DNA from: an uncultured Gammaproteobacteria bacterium
Lineage (GTDB): Bacteria; Patescibacteriota; Patescibacteriia; UBA1558; S5-K13
Direction of reading: 5' to 3'
Assembly (NCBI GenBank): GCA_964640635.1
Contig: CAZXFD010000001.1
Location: 177,302-241,301, forward strand
DNA length: 64,000 nt
The notes under the pieces are model-generated. The model searched no databases and was not told the DNA's origin. It worked only from the letters and a program-made list of their open reading frames with translations. A program made the translations under genes and the position numbers. Numbering within the stretch: position 1 is the stretch's first letter; every line of letters begins with the position of its first letter. This document shows, piece after piece, positions 15,229 to 60,617 of the stretch.

Positions 15229-15399
15229 ATTTAATTTAATAAATAAATTCGAAATAAGAATATCTAAATACTAAACAAATTTGAAATAAGAAATATTAAA
15301 TTAAGCAAACAGTATTTGAGTAATTTGTTTGTGATTTATTGTTTGATGTTTATTATTTGTTTATAATTTAGAATTTAGACTTTAGAATTTTTGAACATT

Positions 15400-18943: not shown

Positions 18944-19756
18944 ATGAGCTTTGAAACCCCAGATATACAACAAGAAGTTAAAAAAAATAGAGAGAATTCA
19001 TCTGAAAAATTTAAATCTATTTATCGTGGTATTTGGGCAGATGAATTAGAAGATAAACAACAATTGCCAATGGGAGGTTCTTTGTTTAGTAAAGAATTGA
19101 CTACAAAATTGGAATTAGATTTTTCAAGTTTTGATTACGAGCTTAGCGGTTTTACAGAAGAAAATCTGAAAAAAATATATAAACAAAGCGAAGATAGTGT
19201 AAAGGAATGGCTTCGCAAAATAAACTCTAACATAGACCCATATTTATTTTTTTTGTTATTTCAGGCTCAGAAAAAGGTTCATAAACTTTTAGAAATAAAC
19301 CTAGAAACTCCAACAAATTCATTTGAAAGAAGAAAAATGTATCAAAATAATAATATTCCAAAATTATCTCAATTAAAGGGCAAGAGTGAATGTGTAGAAA
19401 GAGCTGTTTTGGGTCAATATATACTTCAAAAATCTGGAATAAAATCGTCTTATGTAAGTGGAATTACAATGAACAATCCTAAGGATGATGATGAATATCC
19501 AGAAGATCATAGTTTTATAGTTTTGAGTGATCCAACAAACAAAGCAAAAACTTTGATATTTGATATTGCAAGACCAAAGTCTGGAGCAGAAATTCCAAGA
19601 TTGTTAGAAACAGATGCCCCACTTACTTATGATTTATTAAAAGACAAGGAAGATCTTCTTGTGGGTGCAACAGAGGTTTTACAGAGAGGGAGACTTTGGT
19701 TTGGTGTTGGAGATCCAACAGCGGGATATCATGAAATAATAGAAAAACCAAATTAA
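18944..19756 (+). CDS. Hypothetical protein with a possible transglutaminase-like cysteine-peptidase core (Cys-His-Asp)
   Basis: GKSECVERAVLGQYILQKSGIKSSYVSG, then EDHSFIVL, then LIFDIARP. The order resembles the transglutaminase-like Cys/His/Asp core. Not verified. Confidence 0.35.
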   Translation: MSFETPDIQQEVKKNRENSSEKFKSIYRGIWADELEDKQQLPMGGSLFSKELTTKLELDFSSFDYELSGFTEENLKKIYKQSEDSVKEWLRKINSNIDPYLFFLLFQAQKKVHKLLEINLETPTNSFERRKMYQNNNIPKLSQLKGKSECVERAVLGQYILQKSGIKSSYVSGITMNNPKDDDEYPEDHSFIVLSDPTNKAKTLIFDIARPKSGAEIPRLLETDAPLTYDLLKDKEDLLVGATEVLQRGRLWFGVGDPTAGYHEIIEKPN

Positions 19757-19793
19757 TTTAATAAAGATTCAAAATCAATAAATAGTAAATCAA

Positions 19794-20276
19794 TTGAAAA
19801 TTGAAAATAGTCAAAATTCATCCCGCCAGGGCGGGATAAAAAATGTCTTTATCTGGGGCGCATACGATATTCTCCACGACGGTCATATTAAATTTATAGA
19901 ACATGCTAAGAAATTGGGTGATGTTTATGTTATTCTTGTACCAGATAAAGTAGTAAAAAAATACAAAAAATCTTATTTTAAAGCGAGTATAAGAAAAAAA
20001 CATTTACTAAAAACGGGGTTAGTAAAAAATGTTTTTATAGATGCACTTCCAAATATGAAATGTTTTGATAAAATAGCTCCTGATATATTTGTATTCGGTT
20101 ATGATCAGAACAAAGAATGGAATAACATTTTGAAGAAATATATTTTAGAAAGATTTTCAGATTGTAGGTTTAAAACATTAAAACAATATAGCGAAACACA
20201 TTCAAGTCATCTAAAAAGCAAGATATTATGTTATTGTAGAAGTGGAAAAAAGTTCGTTGATTGTCACGGAAAATAA
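19794..20276 (+). CDS. TagD-like cytidylyltransferase (HxGH nucleotidyltransferase) with a C-terminal SEC-C-like Cys/His motif; start codon ambiguous
   Basis: GAYDILHDGHIKFIEHAKKLGDVYVILV and IFVFGYDQNKEW closely parallel glycerol-3-phosphate cytidylyltransferase. The tail is CYCRSGKKFVDCHG. The only in-frame starts upstream of the KNVFIWG core are TTG 19794 or ATT 19800. Confidence 0.7.
   Translation: MKIENSQNSSRQGGIKNVFIWGAYDILHDGHIKFIEHAKKLGDVYVILVPDKVVKKYKKSYFKASIRKKHLLKTGLVKNVFIDALPNMKCFDKIAPDIFVFGYDQNKEWNNILKKYILERFSDCRFKTLKQYSETHSSHLKSKILCYCRSGKKFVDCHGK
19820..19837. repeat. 18-bp perfect palindrome ATCCCGCCAGGGCGGGAT (copy 1), inside the 5' coding region of the cytidylyltransferase gene
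   Basis: Seen directly. Encodes ...SRQGGI.... GC-rich in an AT-rich context. Confidence 0.8.
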
Positions 20277-20282
20277 TAATTA

Positions 20283-20300
20283 ATCCCGTCATGGCGGGAT
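20283..20300. repeat. 18-bp palindrome ATCCCGTCATGGCGGGAT (copy 2), intergenic, ending 11 nt before the MazG-like ATG
   Basis: Seen directly. Differs from copy 1 by a C-to-T change in the stem and a 1-nt change in the loop (CATGG for CAGGG). Confidence 0.8.
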
Positions 20301-20311
20301 AAGCTAAAAAT

Positions 20312-20671
20312 ATGAAAAAAATTACTACAATTAAAGATGCTCAAAAATTAGTAAAAGAATTTGCAAAGAAAAATAATTGGAAAGATATCCCAAATGTTGA
20401 TAAATTTGACCATATCCACGAAGAACTTATTGAAATGTCACAATACCTAAGATATAAAACGGAGAAGCAGAGAATAAAAGAAATTAAAGTTAATAAACAA
20501 ATTTTTACTGACGGAATAGGGGACTTATTTTTTGCAATTTGTAGGTTAGCAAATCAATTGAATGTTGATATTGAAAGTGCATTTAATATAGTAAGCGGTG
20601 AAATTTTCAAAAAATATGACAACAAAAACAAAGAAATAAACATTTCTTCAAAGAGGAAAAAAATAAAATGA
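20312..20671 (+). CDS. MazG-like nucleotide pyrophosphohydrolase (all-alpha NTP-PPase)
   Basis: HEELIEMSQYL...DGIGDLFFAICRLANQLNVDIESAF matches the MazG/YpjD-type EExxE...D motifs. Confidence 0.65.
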   Translation: MKKITTIKDAQKLVKEFAKKNNWKDIPNVDKFDHIHEELIEMSQYLRYKTEKQRIKEIKVNKQIFTDGIGDLFFAICRLANQLNVDIESAFNIVSGEIFKKYDNKNKEINISSKRKKIK

Positions 20672-21111
20672 TTTCAAGACAGCGACCATGTGCTATTATT
20701 GTTCAAAATGACAAAATATTGCTAATGAAAAGAATTAGAGATAATGAAACTTATTTTACATTTCCAGGTGGTCACGTAGAAGAAAATGAGGACTTGCAAG
20801 CGACTTTAAAAAGAGAAATTAAAGAAGAGTTAAATTTTGATATTAGTAATTTCAAAGAAGTTTTTCGAATTATTCAATTTATCCCGCCAAGGCGGGATGA
20901 ATCAAGAGAAAATATAGAAATTGAAAGTATATTTTATTTAGTATTTGATTTTAAGGGAGAATTACAACTTGGTGGCCCAGAGATTGAAAGAATGAAAACT
21001 GGAAAAAATAATTATTATCCAACGTGGTATAATAAAGTTGAATTTAGTGAACTTGATCCAATTTATCCAGTTGGTATAAAAGAGTTTGTTTTAGATAATC
21101 TACTTAGTTAA
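20668..21111 (+). CDS. NUDIX hydrolase (second copy) carrying an in-frame 6-codon palindromic insert
   Basis: Nudix box PGGHVEENEDLQATLKREIKEELN. Codons IPPRRD are encoded exactly by palindrome copy 3. Confidence 0.7.
   Translation: MISRQRPCAIIVQNDKILLMKRIRDNETYFTFPGGHVEENEDLQATLKREIKEELNFDISNFKEVFRIIQFIPPRRDESRENIEIESIFYLVFDFKGELQLGGPEIERMKTGKNNYYPTWYNKVEFSELDPIYPVGIKEFVLDNLLS
20881..20898. repeat. 18-bp perfect palindrome ATCCCGCCAAGGCGGGAT (copy 3), in-frame inside the Nudix CDS
   Basis: Seen directly. Starts on a codon boundary of the 20668 frame. Confidence 0.8.
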
Positions 21112-23693: not shown

Positions 23694-23782
23694 AGTATAA
23701 AGTTAAATATCGCGAGATTATAAAGAAAAAACCAACTTTATATACTTTCGACTTTAGACTTTTTAACTTTTAACTTAACATT

Positions 23783-24336: not shown

Positions 24337-24378
24337 AGAAAATAAATACTAAACACTAAAAACTAAACACTAAAAACT
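24337..24378 (+). repeat. Tandem G-free repeat (ACTAAACACTAAAA)x2.5 forming the rplL 5' leader
   Basis: Seen directly. Similar CTAAA-rich leaders precede ftsE, mraZ, dnaJ and rpmA. Confidence 0.7.
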
Positions 24379-24384
24379 AAACAT

Positions 24385-31792: not shown

Positions 31793-31808
31793 TCTCGCAG
31801 TGGCGGGA
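31793..31808. repeat. GC-rich hairpin TCTCGC-agtg-GCGGGA, ending 8 nt before the ATG of the Cys-rich mini-protein gene
   Basis: Seen directly. Member of the CCGCCA-N-GGCGG hairpin family. Confidence 0.6.
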
Positions 31809-34065: not shown

Positions 34066-34362
34066 TTTTTCCTCCCAAATTGATTTTATTGTGAACATTG
34101 TATACTACAATATATTTGTAAAAAAAGCAAGTGATGTGATTATGTAGATAAATGGTTTATTTTTAGTTTTATTTTATTGGGTTTAGAGATTTTAGGCGTC
34201 AATAAAACATGTTTTTTACTTAACTTATCCACAGATAACGAGTGTTGAAAAAAGGTCTTTAGTGGTGTATAATATAAGTAAGGTGGTGAGAAGTGGAGAA
34301 TGTTGGGGATAACTATTTTCTCTCTACTAAACGTTAAACACTAAAAACTAAACTCTAATTCA

Positions 34363-40306: not shown

Positions 40307-40423
40307 TATTTATTGATTTTTTATAAAAAGCCGTTCTTTATTGGGCGGTTTTTTCTTTTACTTTATATGTGCTAAAATTTAAATAGGATTAGTATGTTCT
40401 AACCCTACTAACCAACTAATTTA

Positions 40424-40439
40424 CCCCGCCATGGCGGGG
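40424..40439. repeat. Perfect GC palindrome CCCCGCC-at-GGCGGGG, ending 12 nt before the desulforedoxin ATG
   Basis: Seen directly. The hairpin loop contains an ATG. Confidence 0.7.
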
Positions 40440-40451
40440 CAAGCTAACCAT

Positions 40452-40827: not shown

Positions 40828-40854
40828 TTAGCACTCGTCTCTTATGAGTGCTAA
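40828..40854 (+). promoter_or_regulatory. CIRCE operator TTAGCACTC-N9-GAGTGCTAA overlapping the hrcA start codon
   Basis: Perfect match to the CIRCE consensus. The hrcA ATG lies inside the element. Confidence 0.9.
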
Positions 40855-42624: not shown

Positions 42625-42656
42625 CGACCTCGTAGGTCCAAGGACCTTCGAGGTCG
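42625..42656 (+). repeat. Long near-perfect hairpin CGACCTCG-t-AGGTCC-aa-GGACCT-t-CGAGGTCG between hsp20 and the next gene
   Basis: Seen directly. About 14 bp of GC-rich stem with no U-tract. Confidence 0.6.
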
Positions 42657-44355: not shown

Positions 44356-44391
44356 TTTAAATATAAATTAAAATAATAATTCAGAAAGGAA

Positions 44392-44409
44392 CCCACGCCT
44401 GTGGCGGGG
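44392..44409. repeat. GC hairpin CCCACGCC-tgt-GGCGGGG, ending 11 nt before the dnaK ATG
   Basis: Seen directly. One mismatch in the stem. Confidence 0.6.
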
Positions 44410-44420
44410 TAAATAAAATT

Positions 44421-46741: not shown

Positions 46742-46786
46742 ATCAAAATCGCTAAATACTAAAAACTAAACTCTAAACACTAATAA

Positions 46787-52221: not shown

Positions 52222-52258
52222 CCAACCCGGGGTTGACTATTCGGCAACCCCGGGTTGG
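52222..52258. repeat. Perfect 14-bp inverted repeat (CCAACCCGGGGTTG, 9-nt spacer, CAACCCCGGGTTGG), each arm itself palindromic, in the divergent intergenic region
   Basis: Seen directly. Strongly GC-rich. Can fold as one long hairpin or two small ones. Confidence 0.6.
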
Positions 52259-57322: not shown

Positions 57323-57365
57323 TTAATTAGTTATTGACTTAGTGAAAAAGATTTAGTTCTTTTTA

Positions 57366-57397
57366 CCCCCCACCTTATTGGTGGGGGGTTTTGATTT
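57366..57397 (+). terminator. Strong intrinsic terminator
   Basis: CCCCCCACC-ttatt-GGTGGGGGG followed by TTTTGATTT. Confidence 0.85.
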
Positions 57398-57448
57398 AAG
57401 CTTAAAAATTTGCTATATTTATACTTATTAATATATAAAATAAGACTT

Positions 57449-60600: not shown

Positions 60601-60617
60601 ATCTCGTCAGACGAGAT
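60601..60617. repeat. Perfect palindrome ATCTCGTC-a-GACGAGAT, ending 11 nt before the ATG at 60629
   Basis: Seen directly. Confidence 0.7.

Follow-up and report, generated by a model that had tools for sequence, protein, structure and literature searches.

REP-like 18-nt palindromes in a Patescibacteria-like lineage: a probable young, low-copy family of miniature repeats

Most descriptions of small palindromic repeats and RAYT transposases come from Proteobacteria and a few other phyla, and no paper linking such repeats or RAYT to the Candidate Phyla Radiation was found in the literature searched. Repetitive extragenic palindromes (REPs) usually measure 20–40 bp (PMC3733652), and REPs down to 10 paired nt with a 4-nt loop have been reported, as have REPs that cluster near their own transposase gene; for the TnpA-REP and IS200/IS605 enzymes, a tetranucleotide 5′ of the hairpin guides cleavage (PMC8266576). 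According to PMC3733652, CGTC-type REPs have stems of 8–9 bp starting with AT, loops of 4–5 nt, and no dedicated transposase; Neisseria dRS3 and the Rickettsia RPE-4 and RPE-6 cores are counted among these CGTC-tagged REPs (Di Nocera et al. 2013), and intragenic REPs are documented, some copies of which are translated. In yeast mitochondria, GC clusters are polymorphic and mostly intergenic, occur also in frame in var1, and undergo gene conversion and deletion (PMC8811140).

In the window (i.e., the whole stretch of 64,000 nucleotides that was analysed), the sequence-only reading had pointed out three near-identical 18-mers within 1.1 kb, and re-reading the window returned the same coordinates and sequences. 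They are interpreted here, at a probability of about 0.58, as members of a young, low-copy, REP-like miniature palindrome family that has been copied into new sites in a Patescibacteria-like lineage.

The focal palindromes and their likeness to described repeats

All three copies are read on the + strand: copy 1 (ATCCCGCCAGGGCGGGAT, 19820..19837) is preceded by AAATTC, copy 2 (ATCCCGTCATGGCGGGAT, 20283..20300) contains one T.G wobble on that strand, and copy 3 (ATCCCGCCAAGGCGGGAT, 20881..20898) lies within a Nudix hydrolase gene. Their start-to-start spacing is 463 and 598 bp, and they occur as singletons without doublets. The family core is ATCCCGCC-NN-GGCGGGAT, i.e., a G+C stem of 7–8 bp that opens with A-T and T-A pairs and closes on a 4-nt loop. 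Directly 5′ of the stem there is usually AATTY (conserved in six copies), with the tetranucleotides ATTC, ATTA, ATTT, and, for a copy on L203, ATTC; the 3′ flanks are AAAAA, AAGCT, or GAATC, and no target-site duplication was evident at the 18-mer sites. For 15 of the 16 centre dinucleotides the 18-mer is free of stop codons in six frames. At a window GC of 30%, the pattern (≤ 3 mismatches) gave eight strand-matches in 64 kb against a mean expectation of 0.01 from 100 dinucleotide-preserving shuffles, and GGCGGG occurs six times in the window, always as the right arm of a hairpin. In post hoc tests, the clustering of three copies in 1,079 bp of the 64 kb had a P of ~0.0008 under random placement, and of ~0.006 when five canonical copies in 76.6 kb of genome were considered. 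The copies were unchanged in three other Logan assemblies from different sequencing runs (two with all three sites; the third begins within the cluster and has sites 2 and 3) and are therefore not assembly artefacts.

Several ordinary identities were discarded. An intrinsic terminator was ruled out, as the hairpins are followed on the + (coding) strand by A-rich sequence without a T-run; canonical terminators with T-runs are found elsewhere in the window (24817, 29670, 40327, 57365). A Shine–Dalgarno mimic was ruled out, as GGCGGG differs from GGAGG and is paired within the stem, and so was a restriction or methylation site, the centres being unlike one another (CCAGGG, TCATGG, CCAAGG). Rfam 15 returned only tRNA-Thr at gathering score and nothing relevant at E ≤ 10 in 19700–21000; the sole tRNA in the window is unrelated to the 18-mers.

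Closest in shape are the CGTC-type REPs and dRS3. As in CGTC-type REPs, the stem (AT-CCCGC(C)...(G)GCGGG-AT, loop CANG) agrees in length and loop size and has A-T and T-A as its first pairs, a tetranucleotide lies directly 5′ of it, no transposase gene is flanked, and some copies are intragenic. The dRS3 consensus ATTCCC-N8-GGGAAT is about one base pair per arm apart from ATCCCGC-N4-GCGGGAT. Unlike in CGTC-type REPs, however, the tetranucleotide is ATTC, ATTT, or ATTA instead of CGTC, TGTC, or CCTC, the CCA tail is missing, the copies are singletons instead of predominantly head-to-head dimers, five canonical copies are seen in ~77 kb, and the Patescibacteria-like host belongs to a phylum outside those reported. 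With the GTAG REP/REPIN-RAYT system the locus has in common that small palindromes differ between close lineages, that a RAYT-like gene is present in the genome, that a conserved tetranucleotide borders the stem where the GTAG guide would be, and that copies cluster near a source copy, as reported for some REPtrons (PMC8266576). It differs in that GTAG flanks the palindromes on neither strand, that the hairpin, though stable, measures 18 nt against the usual 20–40, that the 18-mers do not form inverted doublets (REPINs), that the RAYT-like gene is flanked by GACCT-N3-AGGTC doublets and not by ATCCCGCC copies, and that intragenic positions account for one or two of the three focal copies. Copy number in that system is often > 100; the 76.6 kb of genome covered here contain five canonical plus two to four diverged copies.

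Rickettsia palindromic elements resemble the 18-mers in that they insert in frame into unrelated housekeeping genes, likewise in a reduced genome, and are structurally tolerated (PMC10969869), and the insert in the Nudix model described below likewise lies in a surface loop. They are, however, ~100–150 bp long and specify a conserved peptide with tens of residues (PMC10969869), against 18 bp and six amino acids here, and the copies in the window are mostly intergenic. The GC clusters of yeast mitochondria and the palindromes of Neurospora mitochondria are likewise short and G+C-rich and spread in a very A+T-rich genome; they differ in belonging to an organelle, in their unrelated sequences, in their usual length of 30–60 bp, and in their AG/TAG terminal repeats.

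Gains at the focal sites and further copies

Copy 1 lies in a cytidylyltransferase-like gene (19794..20276, + strand; 160 aa as called; Pfam CTP_transf_like, E = 7.9e-14, domain from residue 20), where it reads SSRQGG in an N-terminal extension. Its placement inside the 5′ end of this gene, as first proposed, holds for the ORF as called from TTG 19794, and its coding status hangs on that unverified start: the TTG and the frame are conserved in five relatives, and an ATA codon at 19836, opposite a TTG of L126 in the alignment, may be the true start, which would place copy 1 in the 5′ leader and not in the coding sequence. The copy is present and identical in L130 (the closest relative found; SecA 91% identical) and absent in L123, L125, and L126; these orthologs, whose comparison had been suggested, are 21 nt (7 codons) shorter at this point. 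A-runs matching the empty site flank copy 1, and its RNA hairpin has a predicted energy of −11.6 kcal/mol (z = −3.1). An origin by in situ quasi-palindrome correction was rejected because the empty site 1 contains zero C or G.

Copy 2 is intercistronic, 6 nt past the cytidylyltransferase stop codon and, as originally described, 11 nt ahead of an ATG (20312); the sequence directly after it is AAGCTAAAAAT. The downstream gene (20312..20671, + strand, 119 aa) had been called MazG-like, a label that Pfam does not back, returning no significant family. In L130 and L123, copy 2 is absent by direct reading and an unrelated 113-nt spacer stands in its place; in L125 and L126 the spacer between the CTP-transferase and the next gene is even longer than 113 nt by their gene calls, and a search for a GC hairpin of the 18-mer family in L125, L126, and L127 found none. 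Copy 2 is thus not a clean 18-nt insert, as the 113-nt spacer was replaced by 35 nt. These 35 nt also carry the leader motif AAGCTAA...ATATG, common to the 40423 leader of a desulforedoxin-like gene, with which site 2 shares 28 of 34 nt and the same spacing from the first base of the palindrome to two bases past the ATG.

Copy 3 lies in the Nudix hydrolase gene (20668..21111, + strand; 147 aa; Pfam NUDIX, E = 2.8e-15). Coordinates and translation agree with the claim that it makes up exactly six in-frame codons (ATC CCG CCA AGG CGG GAT, IPPRRD), namely residues 72–77. It is a clean 18-nt in-frame insertion, removal of which restores the ortholog length; it is absent in all five orthologous DNAs (L130, L123, L125, L126, L127), and in an alignment of 15 proteins IPPRRD is found in none of the 14 Nudix homologues, so the orthologs do not share these residues, a result that would have counted against the selfish reading. 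In the predicted structure (mean pLDDT 91), IPPRRD falls into the block of lowest pLDDT (64), at a beta-hairpin loop between strands 58–72 and 83–96, which agrees with the proposed surface loop at the level of a model. The flanks of copy 3 lengthen the stem to 11 bp, and its RNA hairpin has a predicted energy of −17.1 kcal/mol (z = −5.2); neither an evident co-transferred flank nor more than little target homology was seen at this site.

Sites 2 and 3 are hence absent from every relative examined, and site 1 is found only in L130. This comparison of orthologous sequences shows each focal copy to be a lineage-specific gain, with site 1 gained first (the oldest) and sites 2 and 3 later, within ~1 kb of site 1.

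Further hairpins were found in the window, all on the + strand. A diverged relative, ACCCCGCCATGGCGGGGC (40423..40440), stands between TAATTT and the AAGCTAACCAT-ATG of the 44-aa desulforedoxin-like gene; it is present in L131 (DnaK 96% identical) and absent in L132 (92%), where the leader without hairpin reads ...CCAGCTAACCATATG. A second diverged relative, ACCCACGCCTGTGGCGGGGT (44391..44410), lies 10 nt ahead of the dnaK ATG as a 19-nt insertion directly after GAAAGGA; it is absent upstream of dnaK in L131, L133, L132, and L205, being unique to the window. The Hsp20 gene of L205 is preceded by the same hairpin as dnaK with the same left flank, GGAAAGGA, and in L132 a hairpin similar to that of dnaK stands ahead of Hsp20. 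Two more hairpins, judged on resemblance, are possible family members: ATCTCGTCAGACGAGAT (60601..60617), 4 nt past a stop codon and 11 nt ahead of an ATG (60629), differs from the core by two compensatory C>T/G>A pairs (z = −4.8), and TCTCGCAGTGGCGGGA (31793..31808), with a T.G wobble and AATTTT before it, lies between a stop codon and ATG 31818 with a 9-nt spacer. Two of the four diverged sites had checkable orthologous sites (desulforedoxin and dnaK), and both gains are recent. The diverged members retain base pairing, not sequence.

A fifth canonical copy with an AATTC flank is located ~2.1 kb past the window end (L203:12898-12915), so that the 76.6 kb of genome covered contain five canonical and two to four diverged copies. 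In the related MAG GCA_964636855.1 (DnaK 97% identical), the Nudix cluster (L126) is without palindromes, and ATCCCGCCGTGGCGGGAT occurs in a MiaB-like gene, in the same reading frame (IPPWRD); compared with solved structures, this copy falls into a variable linker, and a distant homologue differs by only 2 residues in length. The motif therefore extends beyond the cluster, with copies elsewhere in the same genome and in relatives. Within the window the copies are mainly intergenic; in other CPR genomes, too, the same 18-mer almost always occurs between genes.

An exact-pattern scan covered 185,579 species genomes; the matches listed are part of the total and gave the lead to L117. Among the matches listed, the 18-mer is a generic stable hairpin, forming a terminator stem, the variable arm of a tRNA (L049, L056, L112), or the core of an unrelated Desulfobacterales repeat. 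Since the same 18-mer occurs in many unrelated phyla in other roles, common descent is unproven by sequence identity alone. A metagenome scan with the AATTN flank returned 68 loci, mainly in unrelated contexts and in a handful of cases as stop–hairpin–ATG; these loci had neither a shared downstream gene nor a linked transposase.

Mode of spread and candidate functions

A gene for a RAYT-like HUH (Y1) transposase is present in the same organism (L202:54-641), ~29 kb from the cluster. It is flanked by doublets of the palindrome GACCT-N3-AGGTC, one of which lies in frame within its own coding sequence, and no ATCCCGCC copies were seen adjoining it; its orthologue in L132 shows the same arrangement with a different palindrome. 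Because both genes are flanked by or carry palindromes, REP/RAYT biology, in-frame intragenic palindromes included, is operating in this clade. A further RAYT gene may be present elsewhere in the genome. The proximity of a RAYT-like gene to the 18-mer in L030 was judged coincidental, as a different repeat of its own flanks that gene and 860 nt separate it from the palindrome; L044 and L033 also have RAYT-like genes near the 18-mer.

The route thought likeliest is that the hairpin would be copied as single-stranded DNA by an HUH/Y1 enzyme (RAYT or IS200-type) acting in trans, which would account for the tetranucleotide 5′ of the stem and for the left flank shared by donor and target. The main alternative would be copying guided by homology between A/T-rich leaders, through gene conversion or template switching, and spread by such means or by microhomology-mediated repair, without a transposase, from nearby or similar leaders and with a variable flank, is a doubtful but serious candidate. 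At dnaK, GAAAGGA is ancestral and also directly precedes the near-identical Hsp20 hairpin of the relatives, and the insertion adjoins an 8-nt match to this donor-like leader; site 2 has 7 nt of 3′ flank and its spacing in common with the desulforedoxin leader and arose by replacement of a spacer instead of clean insertion. For these two sites, homology-guided copying fits at least as well as transposition. The A-runs around site 1 that match the empty site, the position of the young copies ~1 kb or less from an older one, the loss of a hemerythrin gene from the same region, and the gene conversion of yeast mitochondrial GC clusters (PMC8811140) point the same way. Site 3, however, is a clean 18-nt insertion with no evident flank transfer and little target homology, AATTY is found 5′ of the stem in six copies, as would be expected if an HUH enzyme used a tetranucleotide there as guide or target, and unlinked loci as well as another gene in a related genome also carry copies.

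Whatever the route, the elements are best regarded as selfish or neutral passengers and not as required parts of genes. Survivors would be those in tolerant places, such as the surface beta-hairpin loop of the Nudix protein and an N-terminal extension; intragenic copies presumably persist because 18 nt keep the frame, bring no stop codon, and landed in such places, and intergenic copies would fall between one gene's stop codon and the following start codon, the genome being compact and its spacers very short. Transcription of the latter copies into stable RNA hairpins is probable, and mRNA stability may be altered as a side effect. The suggested selfish, RPE-like behaviour thus fits through the lineage-specific gains, the loop insert, and the copies elsewhere; the in-frame insertion is real but less novel than had been implied, as intragenic in-frame REPs are already described (PMC3733652).

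Against the passenger reading, four to five hairpins stand at a nearly fixed 9–11 nt from a start codon, some of them ahead of stress genes, and could have a selected function. They might be functional mRNA parts between stop and start codons (stabilisers, processing sites, or modulators of translation), with the intragenic copies as by-products; we consider this unlikely. The hairpins at 20283, 40423, 44391, 60601, and 31793 end 9–11 nt ahead of the start codon, DnaK, Hsp20, and desulforedoxin are among the downstream genes, the T.G at site 2 and 31793 still pairs in the + strand RNA, and the Hsp20 leader hairpin is retained in two lineages (L205, L132). A Shine–Dalgarno sequence is missing from most genes here, unrelated AT-rich metagenome contigs have similar layouts of stop–hairpin–6 to 10 nt–ATG, and REPs between co-directional genes are thought to be RNA elements (PMC3733652). 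Yet the genes are conserved while none of the three focal copies is kept beyond the closest relative, the dnaK hairpin is missing in four relatives with DnaK 92–97% identical, and the downstream genes also encode an O-antigen-ligase-like protein, an epimerase, and an unknown protein. At 90% coding density any intergenic insertion falls near a start codon, the copies in mid-Nudix and MiaB have no obvious RNA role, and no Rfam family matched. Possibly the unit is a portable leader cassette, as hairpin–(C)AAGC(T/A)AA..AT–ATG recurs with identical 11-nt spacing before the 20312 gene, the desulforedoxin gene, and Hsp20 of L205. That a hairpin, an A-rich spacer of 9–11 nt (often AAGC(T)AA..AT), and a start codon form a module of post-transcriptional control (hairpin + AAGC(T)AA..AT + ATG, for stress genes) is improbable in our estimate; such a module would have been copied ahead of genes, notably Hsp20, DnaK, desulforedoxin, and 20312, and would act as stabiliser, processing site, or thermosensor, propositions to which we give equally little credence. 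Least of all do we expect the palindromes to be operators of one dimeric regulator of the nucleotide house-cleaning cluster, the alternative that had been offered alongside the selfish one. The perfect 8+8 bp dyad symmetry with a variable centre, three sites in one cluster, and related palindromes ahead of the stress-related dnaK and desulforedoxin would suit such a role, but the same conserved cluster has no site or only one in five relatives, one site lies mid-gene at a cost of six codons, the same 18-mer stands in frame in a relative's MiaB-like gene, diverged members conserve pairing through double changes instead of a protein-readable base sequence, and Pfam identified no regulator gene in the cluster.

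Meaning for streamlined genomes

With the 18-mers read as a young REP-like family, the locus provides an element of minimal length (18 nt) whose gains form a dated series, in which empty and filled sites can be compared between relatives 91–97% identical in core proteins, and the same tiny genome has a RAYT-like gene. The locus lends itself to the question, left open for CGTC-type REPs, of how repeats spread without a flanking cognate transposase. Were the leader-cassette explanation true, it would mean a mobile palindrome family that rewires gene expression in Patescibacteria. The Nudix copy gives a clean example of a palindrome turned into six residues of an enzyme loop and is a case in which to study how repeats add small indels to the proteins of streamlined genomes. 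In annotation, inserts of this kind account for lineage-specific loops of six residues and for unusual N-terminal extensions.

Position, fold, and setting of the palindromes

The three 18-nt palindromes lie at 19820-19837 (copy 1, ATCCCGCCAGGGCGGGAT), 20283-20300 (copy 2, ATCCCGTCATGGCGGGAT), and 20881-20898 (copy 3, ATCCCGCCAAGGCGGGAT), as a direct check of the coordinates given by the sequence-only reading bore out. The G+C content of the window is 30%, and a pattern search of it (up to 3 mismatches) returned 8 strand-matches versus 0.01 expected from shuffles, the fourth place matched, at 40423, being a close variant. GGCGGG occurs six times in the 64 kb, each time as the right arm of a hairpin. 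The predicted fold of each copy is a hairpin with a 7-bp stem and a 4-nt loop (-10 to -12 kcal/mol), and at site 3 the flanks lengthen the predicted stem to 11 bp (-17 kcal/mol). A search of Rfam gave no match to the palindromes, and a terminator role was ruled out, as no T-run follows the hairpins. Three other assemblies of this organism, made from separate sequencing runs, show the copies unchanged, two holding all three copies and the third, which begins within the cluster, holding sites 2 and 3; they are therefore not assembly artefacts.

SecA, DnaK, and Nudix proteins had their nearest relatives in Patescibacteria (CPR) metagenome-assembled genomes. By Pfam, the local gene order is DUF1653, first Nudix, an uncharacterised 270-aa protein, a cytidylyltransferase-like protein, a 119-aa protein, second Nudix, and an MFS transporter; the 119-aa protein, labelled "MazG-like" in the sequence-only reading, had no significant Pfam match. 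The cytidylyltransferase carries a C-terminal SEC-C-like Cys motif (20230-20276; Pfam E = 0.0019, below threshold). A Shine-Dalgarno sequence is missing from most window genes. Repeated CTAAA/ACTAAA units (e.g., aaactaaacactaaaaactaaacat) make up several gene leaders (1546-1585, 15351-15390, 23743-23782, 24345-24384, 34323-34362, and 46747-46786), some of them of ribosomal protein genes (23783 and 24385 match L10 and L12 genes called in locus L120), and a similar AGCTAA-type repeat lies 5' of the desulforedoxin gene in L132, a relative's dnaK-region locus. The AAGCT(T)AAAAAT motif abuts a start codon in a third place, 57365-57412, where a strong hairpin (ACCCCCCACC-TTATT-GGTGGGGGGT) leads into tttgatttAAGCTTAAAAAT and a start codon, TTG. 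A CIRCE-like inverted repeat at 40829-40853 (TAGCACTC-N9-GAGTGCTA) overlaps the hrcA start and would be expected to be the HrcA operator of the hrcA-grpE-hsp20-dnaK region.

Occupied and empty sites in related genomes

Relatives' loci with an orthologous Nudix cluster were compared, i.e., L130 (GCA_019248485.1; SecA 91% identical), L123, L125, and L126 (Nudix 73-74%), and L127 (Nudix about 65%). In an alignment of 15 Nudix proteins, six extra residues at site 3 (IPPRRD) occurred only in the window protein and in none of the other 14, so the insert proved lineage-specific. It occupies residues 72-77, in the loop joining strands 58-72 and 83-96 of the AlphaFold model (mean pLDDT 91), and this loop is the model's sole low-confidence block (pLDDT 64). 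The window DNA reads TTT-[ATC CCG CCA AGG CGG GAT]-GAA TCA AGA GAA AAT, and the empty site TTT AAT CCC AGA GAA AAT in L125 and TTT AGT CCC CGA GAT AAT in L130 and L123; in the DNA comparison, deleting the 18 nt restored the exact orthologous length.

The site 1 palindrome is base-for-base identical in L130 and absent from L123, L125, and L126, where the ORFs lack 7 codons (21 nt) here. TTG 19794 and the frame are kept in five relatives, the pipeline gene calls use the same start, and L127 has an even longer, ATG-initiated N-terminal extension. The cytidylyltransferase Pfam domain starts no earlier than residue 20, and the alternative start ATA 19836, which aligns with the TTG of L126, would yield a typical N-terminus (MKNVFIWG). 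Site 1 is in frame within the called ORF; its translation is putative. The sequence-only reading had placed two copies in-frame in coding sequence, which was confirmed for the Nudix copy and holds at site 1 for the called ORF only, given the ambiguous start (TTG 19794 vs ATA 19836).

At site 2, a 113-nt unrelated spacer is found in L130 and L123, and the corresponding spacer is longer still in L125 and L126 (by their gene calls), in which no GC hairpin of the palindromes' family (henceforth the ATCCCGCC family, after its core) was found. The window spacer is 35 nt long and consists of the palindrome and AAGCTAAAAAT, followed by the ATG. Because site 1 is present in L130, where sites 2 and 3 are missing, it is the older copy; sites 2 and 3 were gained later and in the window lineage only. 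These later gains lie within 0.5 kb (site 2) and 1.1 kb (site 3) of site 1. The same stretch has lost a hemerythrin gene, which in four relatives separates the 119-aa gene from the Nudix gene (L123:4547-4948, L130:19010-19411); in the window, these two genes overlap by ATGA (20668-20671).

Further family members and a RAYT-like gene

The fifth copy of canonical form (AATTC-ATCCCGCAATGGCGGGAT) is found 2.1 kb past the 3' end of the window (L203:12898-12915, window coordinate about 66132) between two epimerase genes, 3 nt after the first stop codon and 16 nt before the next start codon. The Nudix cluster of GCA_964636855.1 (L126) is free of palindromes; ATCCCGCCGTGGCGGGAT stands in frame in a MiaB-like gene of this assembly, encoding IPPWRD in the same reading frame as IPPRRD, in a variable linker, where its standing as an insertion is putative. 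This assembly (L117, L126, L205) is syntenic with the window, has a G+C content of about 31%, and encodes a DnaK sharing 97% identity with the window protein, for which reasons its label "uncultured Gammaproteobacteria bacterium" looks wrong.

Diverged relatives lie just 5' of the start codons of a desulforedoxin-like gene (40423, ACCCCGCCATGGCGGGGC), of dnaK (44391, ACCCACGCCTGTGGCGGGGT), and of two other genes (60601, ATCTCGTCAGACGAGAT; 31793, TCTCGCAGTGGCGGGA). The hairpin at 40423 is common to the window and L131 (DnaK 96%) and missing in L132 (92%), and that at dnaK is a 19-nt insertion directly 3' of GAAAGGA, missing in L131, L133, L132, and L205 (all dnaK-region loci); both relatives that could be checked are thus recent gains too. 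In L205, the Hsp20 leader has a nearly identical hairpin, its left flank again being GGAAAGGA, and a similar hairpin precedes Hsp20 in L132. AATTY abuts the 5' side of the stem in six copies. The unit, 18 nt long and stop-free in every one of the six frames for 15 of 16 possible centre dinucleotides, would let intragenic copies survive. Elsewhere among CPR genomes, this 18-mer is intergenic in nearly every case; coding insertions are therefore the exception and presumably last only where they are tolerated.

Upstream extension of the window revealed a candidate mobiliser, a RAYT-like Y1/HUH transposase gene (195 aa; L202:54-641, minus strand) in the same organism, at the contig end about 8.8-9.4 kb upstream of window base 1 and about 29 kb from the palindrome cluster. 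Its product matched Pfam Y1_Tnp above threshold and the NCBIfam REP-associated tyrosine transposase below threshold, and HFH and AYINLNP were taken, by inspection, to be its HUH and catalytic-tyrosine motifs. Doublets of a 13-nt palindrome (GACCT-N3-AGGTC) flank the gene (L202:21-49 and 727-765), and one lies in frame within it (L202:409-438, ...LLLEE-PTSQVERPARSD-TAISKF...). A single such doublet is present in the window (GACCTCGTAGGTC-caag-GACCTTCGAGGTC, 42626-42655), just 3' of the Hsp20 gene; equivalents occur in L131 and L132. The RAYT orthologue of L132 (51% identical; L132:18355-19145) is flanked by a different palindrome, CTGCCCTTGTCAAGGGCAG (18361, 19114), and the gene itself carries a third copy in frame (18777). 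Since both genes are flanked by, and internally carry, palindromes, REP/RAYT biology including in-frame palindromes is active in this clade. Each lineage has its own palindrome family, and the ATCCCGCC family is not cognate to the RAYT-like gene seen. Between the ECF sigma region and the DUF5667 gene, the window has a palindrome pair (CAACCCGGGGTTG and CAACCCCGGGTTG, 52223-52257) at a position that holds the RAYT gene in L132 and three CCCTCTCC...GGAGAGGG hairpins in L131; the position resembles a G+C palindrome hot spot.

Nature and spread of the family

The copies are most simply accounted for as a REP-like family of miniature palindromes that is young and low in copy number. The lineage-specific gains and the in-frame Nudix insert support in kind the earlier comparison with selfish Rickettsia palindromic elements (RPEs), which share the in-frame behaviour and are about 100-150 bp long (PMC10969869). 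The other earlier suggestion, operators of a dimeric regulator, fails for three reasons: the poor conservation of the sites, the copy in mid-gene, and the copy in the MiaB-like gene. Spread by a HUH single-strand transposase, which would move the hairpins, fits the constant tetranucleotide beside the stem and the left flank common to donor-like and target sites, features consistent with the action of such enzymes (PMC8266576). Homology-guided copying fits equally well, given the leader motif that accompanies the palindrome at site 2 and the 8 nt of homology at the dnaK junction. A recruited RNA role of the hairpins is conceivable from their recurrent spacing of 9-11 nt to start codons, the AAGC(T)AA spacer in common, and the stress genes nearby, although the short spacers of a compact genome alone would put any intergenic insertion there.

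In architecture, the palindromes come nearest, among described elements, to the CGTC-tagged REPs of Di Nocera et al. (PMC3733652), which have 8-9 bp stems starting with AT, loops of 4-5 nt, no dedicated transposase, and some intragenic, translated copies, and which include Neisseria dRS3 and the RPE-4/-6 cores; their tag, tail, and dimer organisation are not seen in the window palindromes. Unlike GTAG REPs/REPINs, the latter have no GTAG tag, form no doublets, and do not flank the RAYT-like gene seen. A functional analogue is provided by yeast mitochondrial GC clusters, which are G+C palindromes of an A+T-rich genome and have inserted in frame in var1 (PMC8811140). The literature searched contained no report of REP/RAYT systems from CPR bacteria. 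The elements are a new, unusually small, low-copy variant within the known class of bacterial palindromic repeats, and the value of the case lies mainly in gains that can be ordered in time and in a RAYT-like gene at hand for testing.
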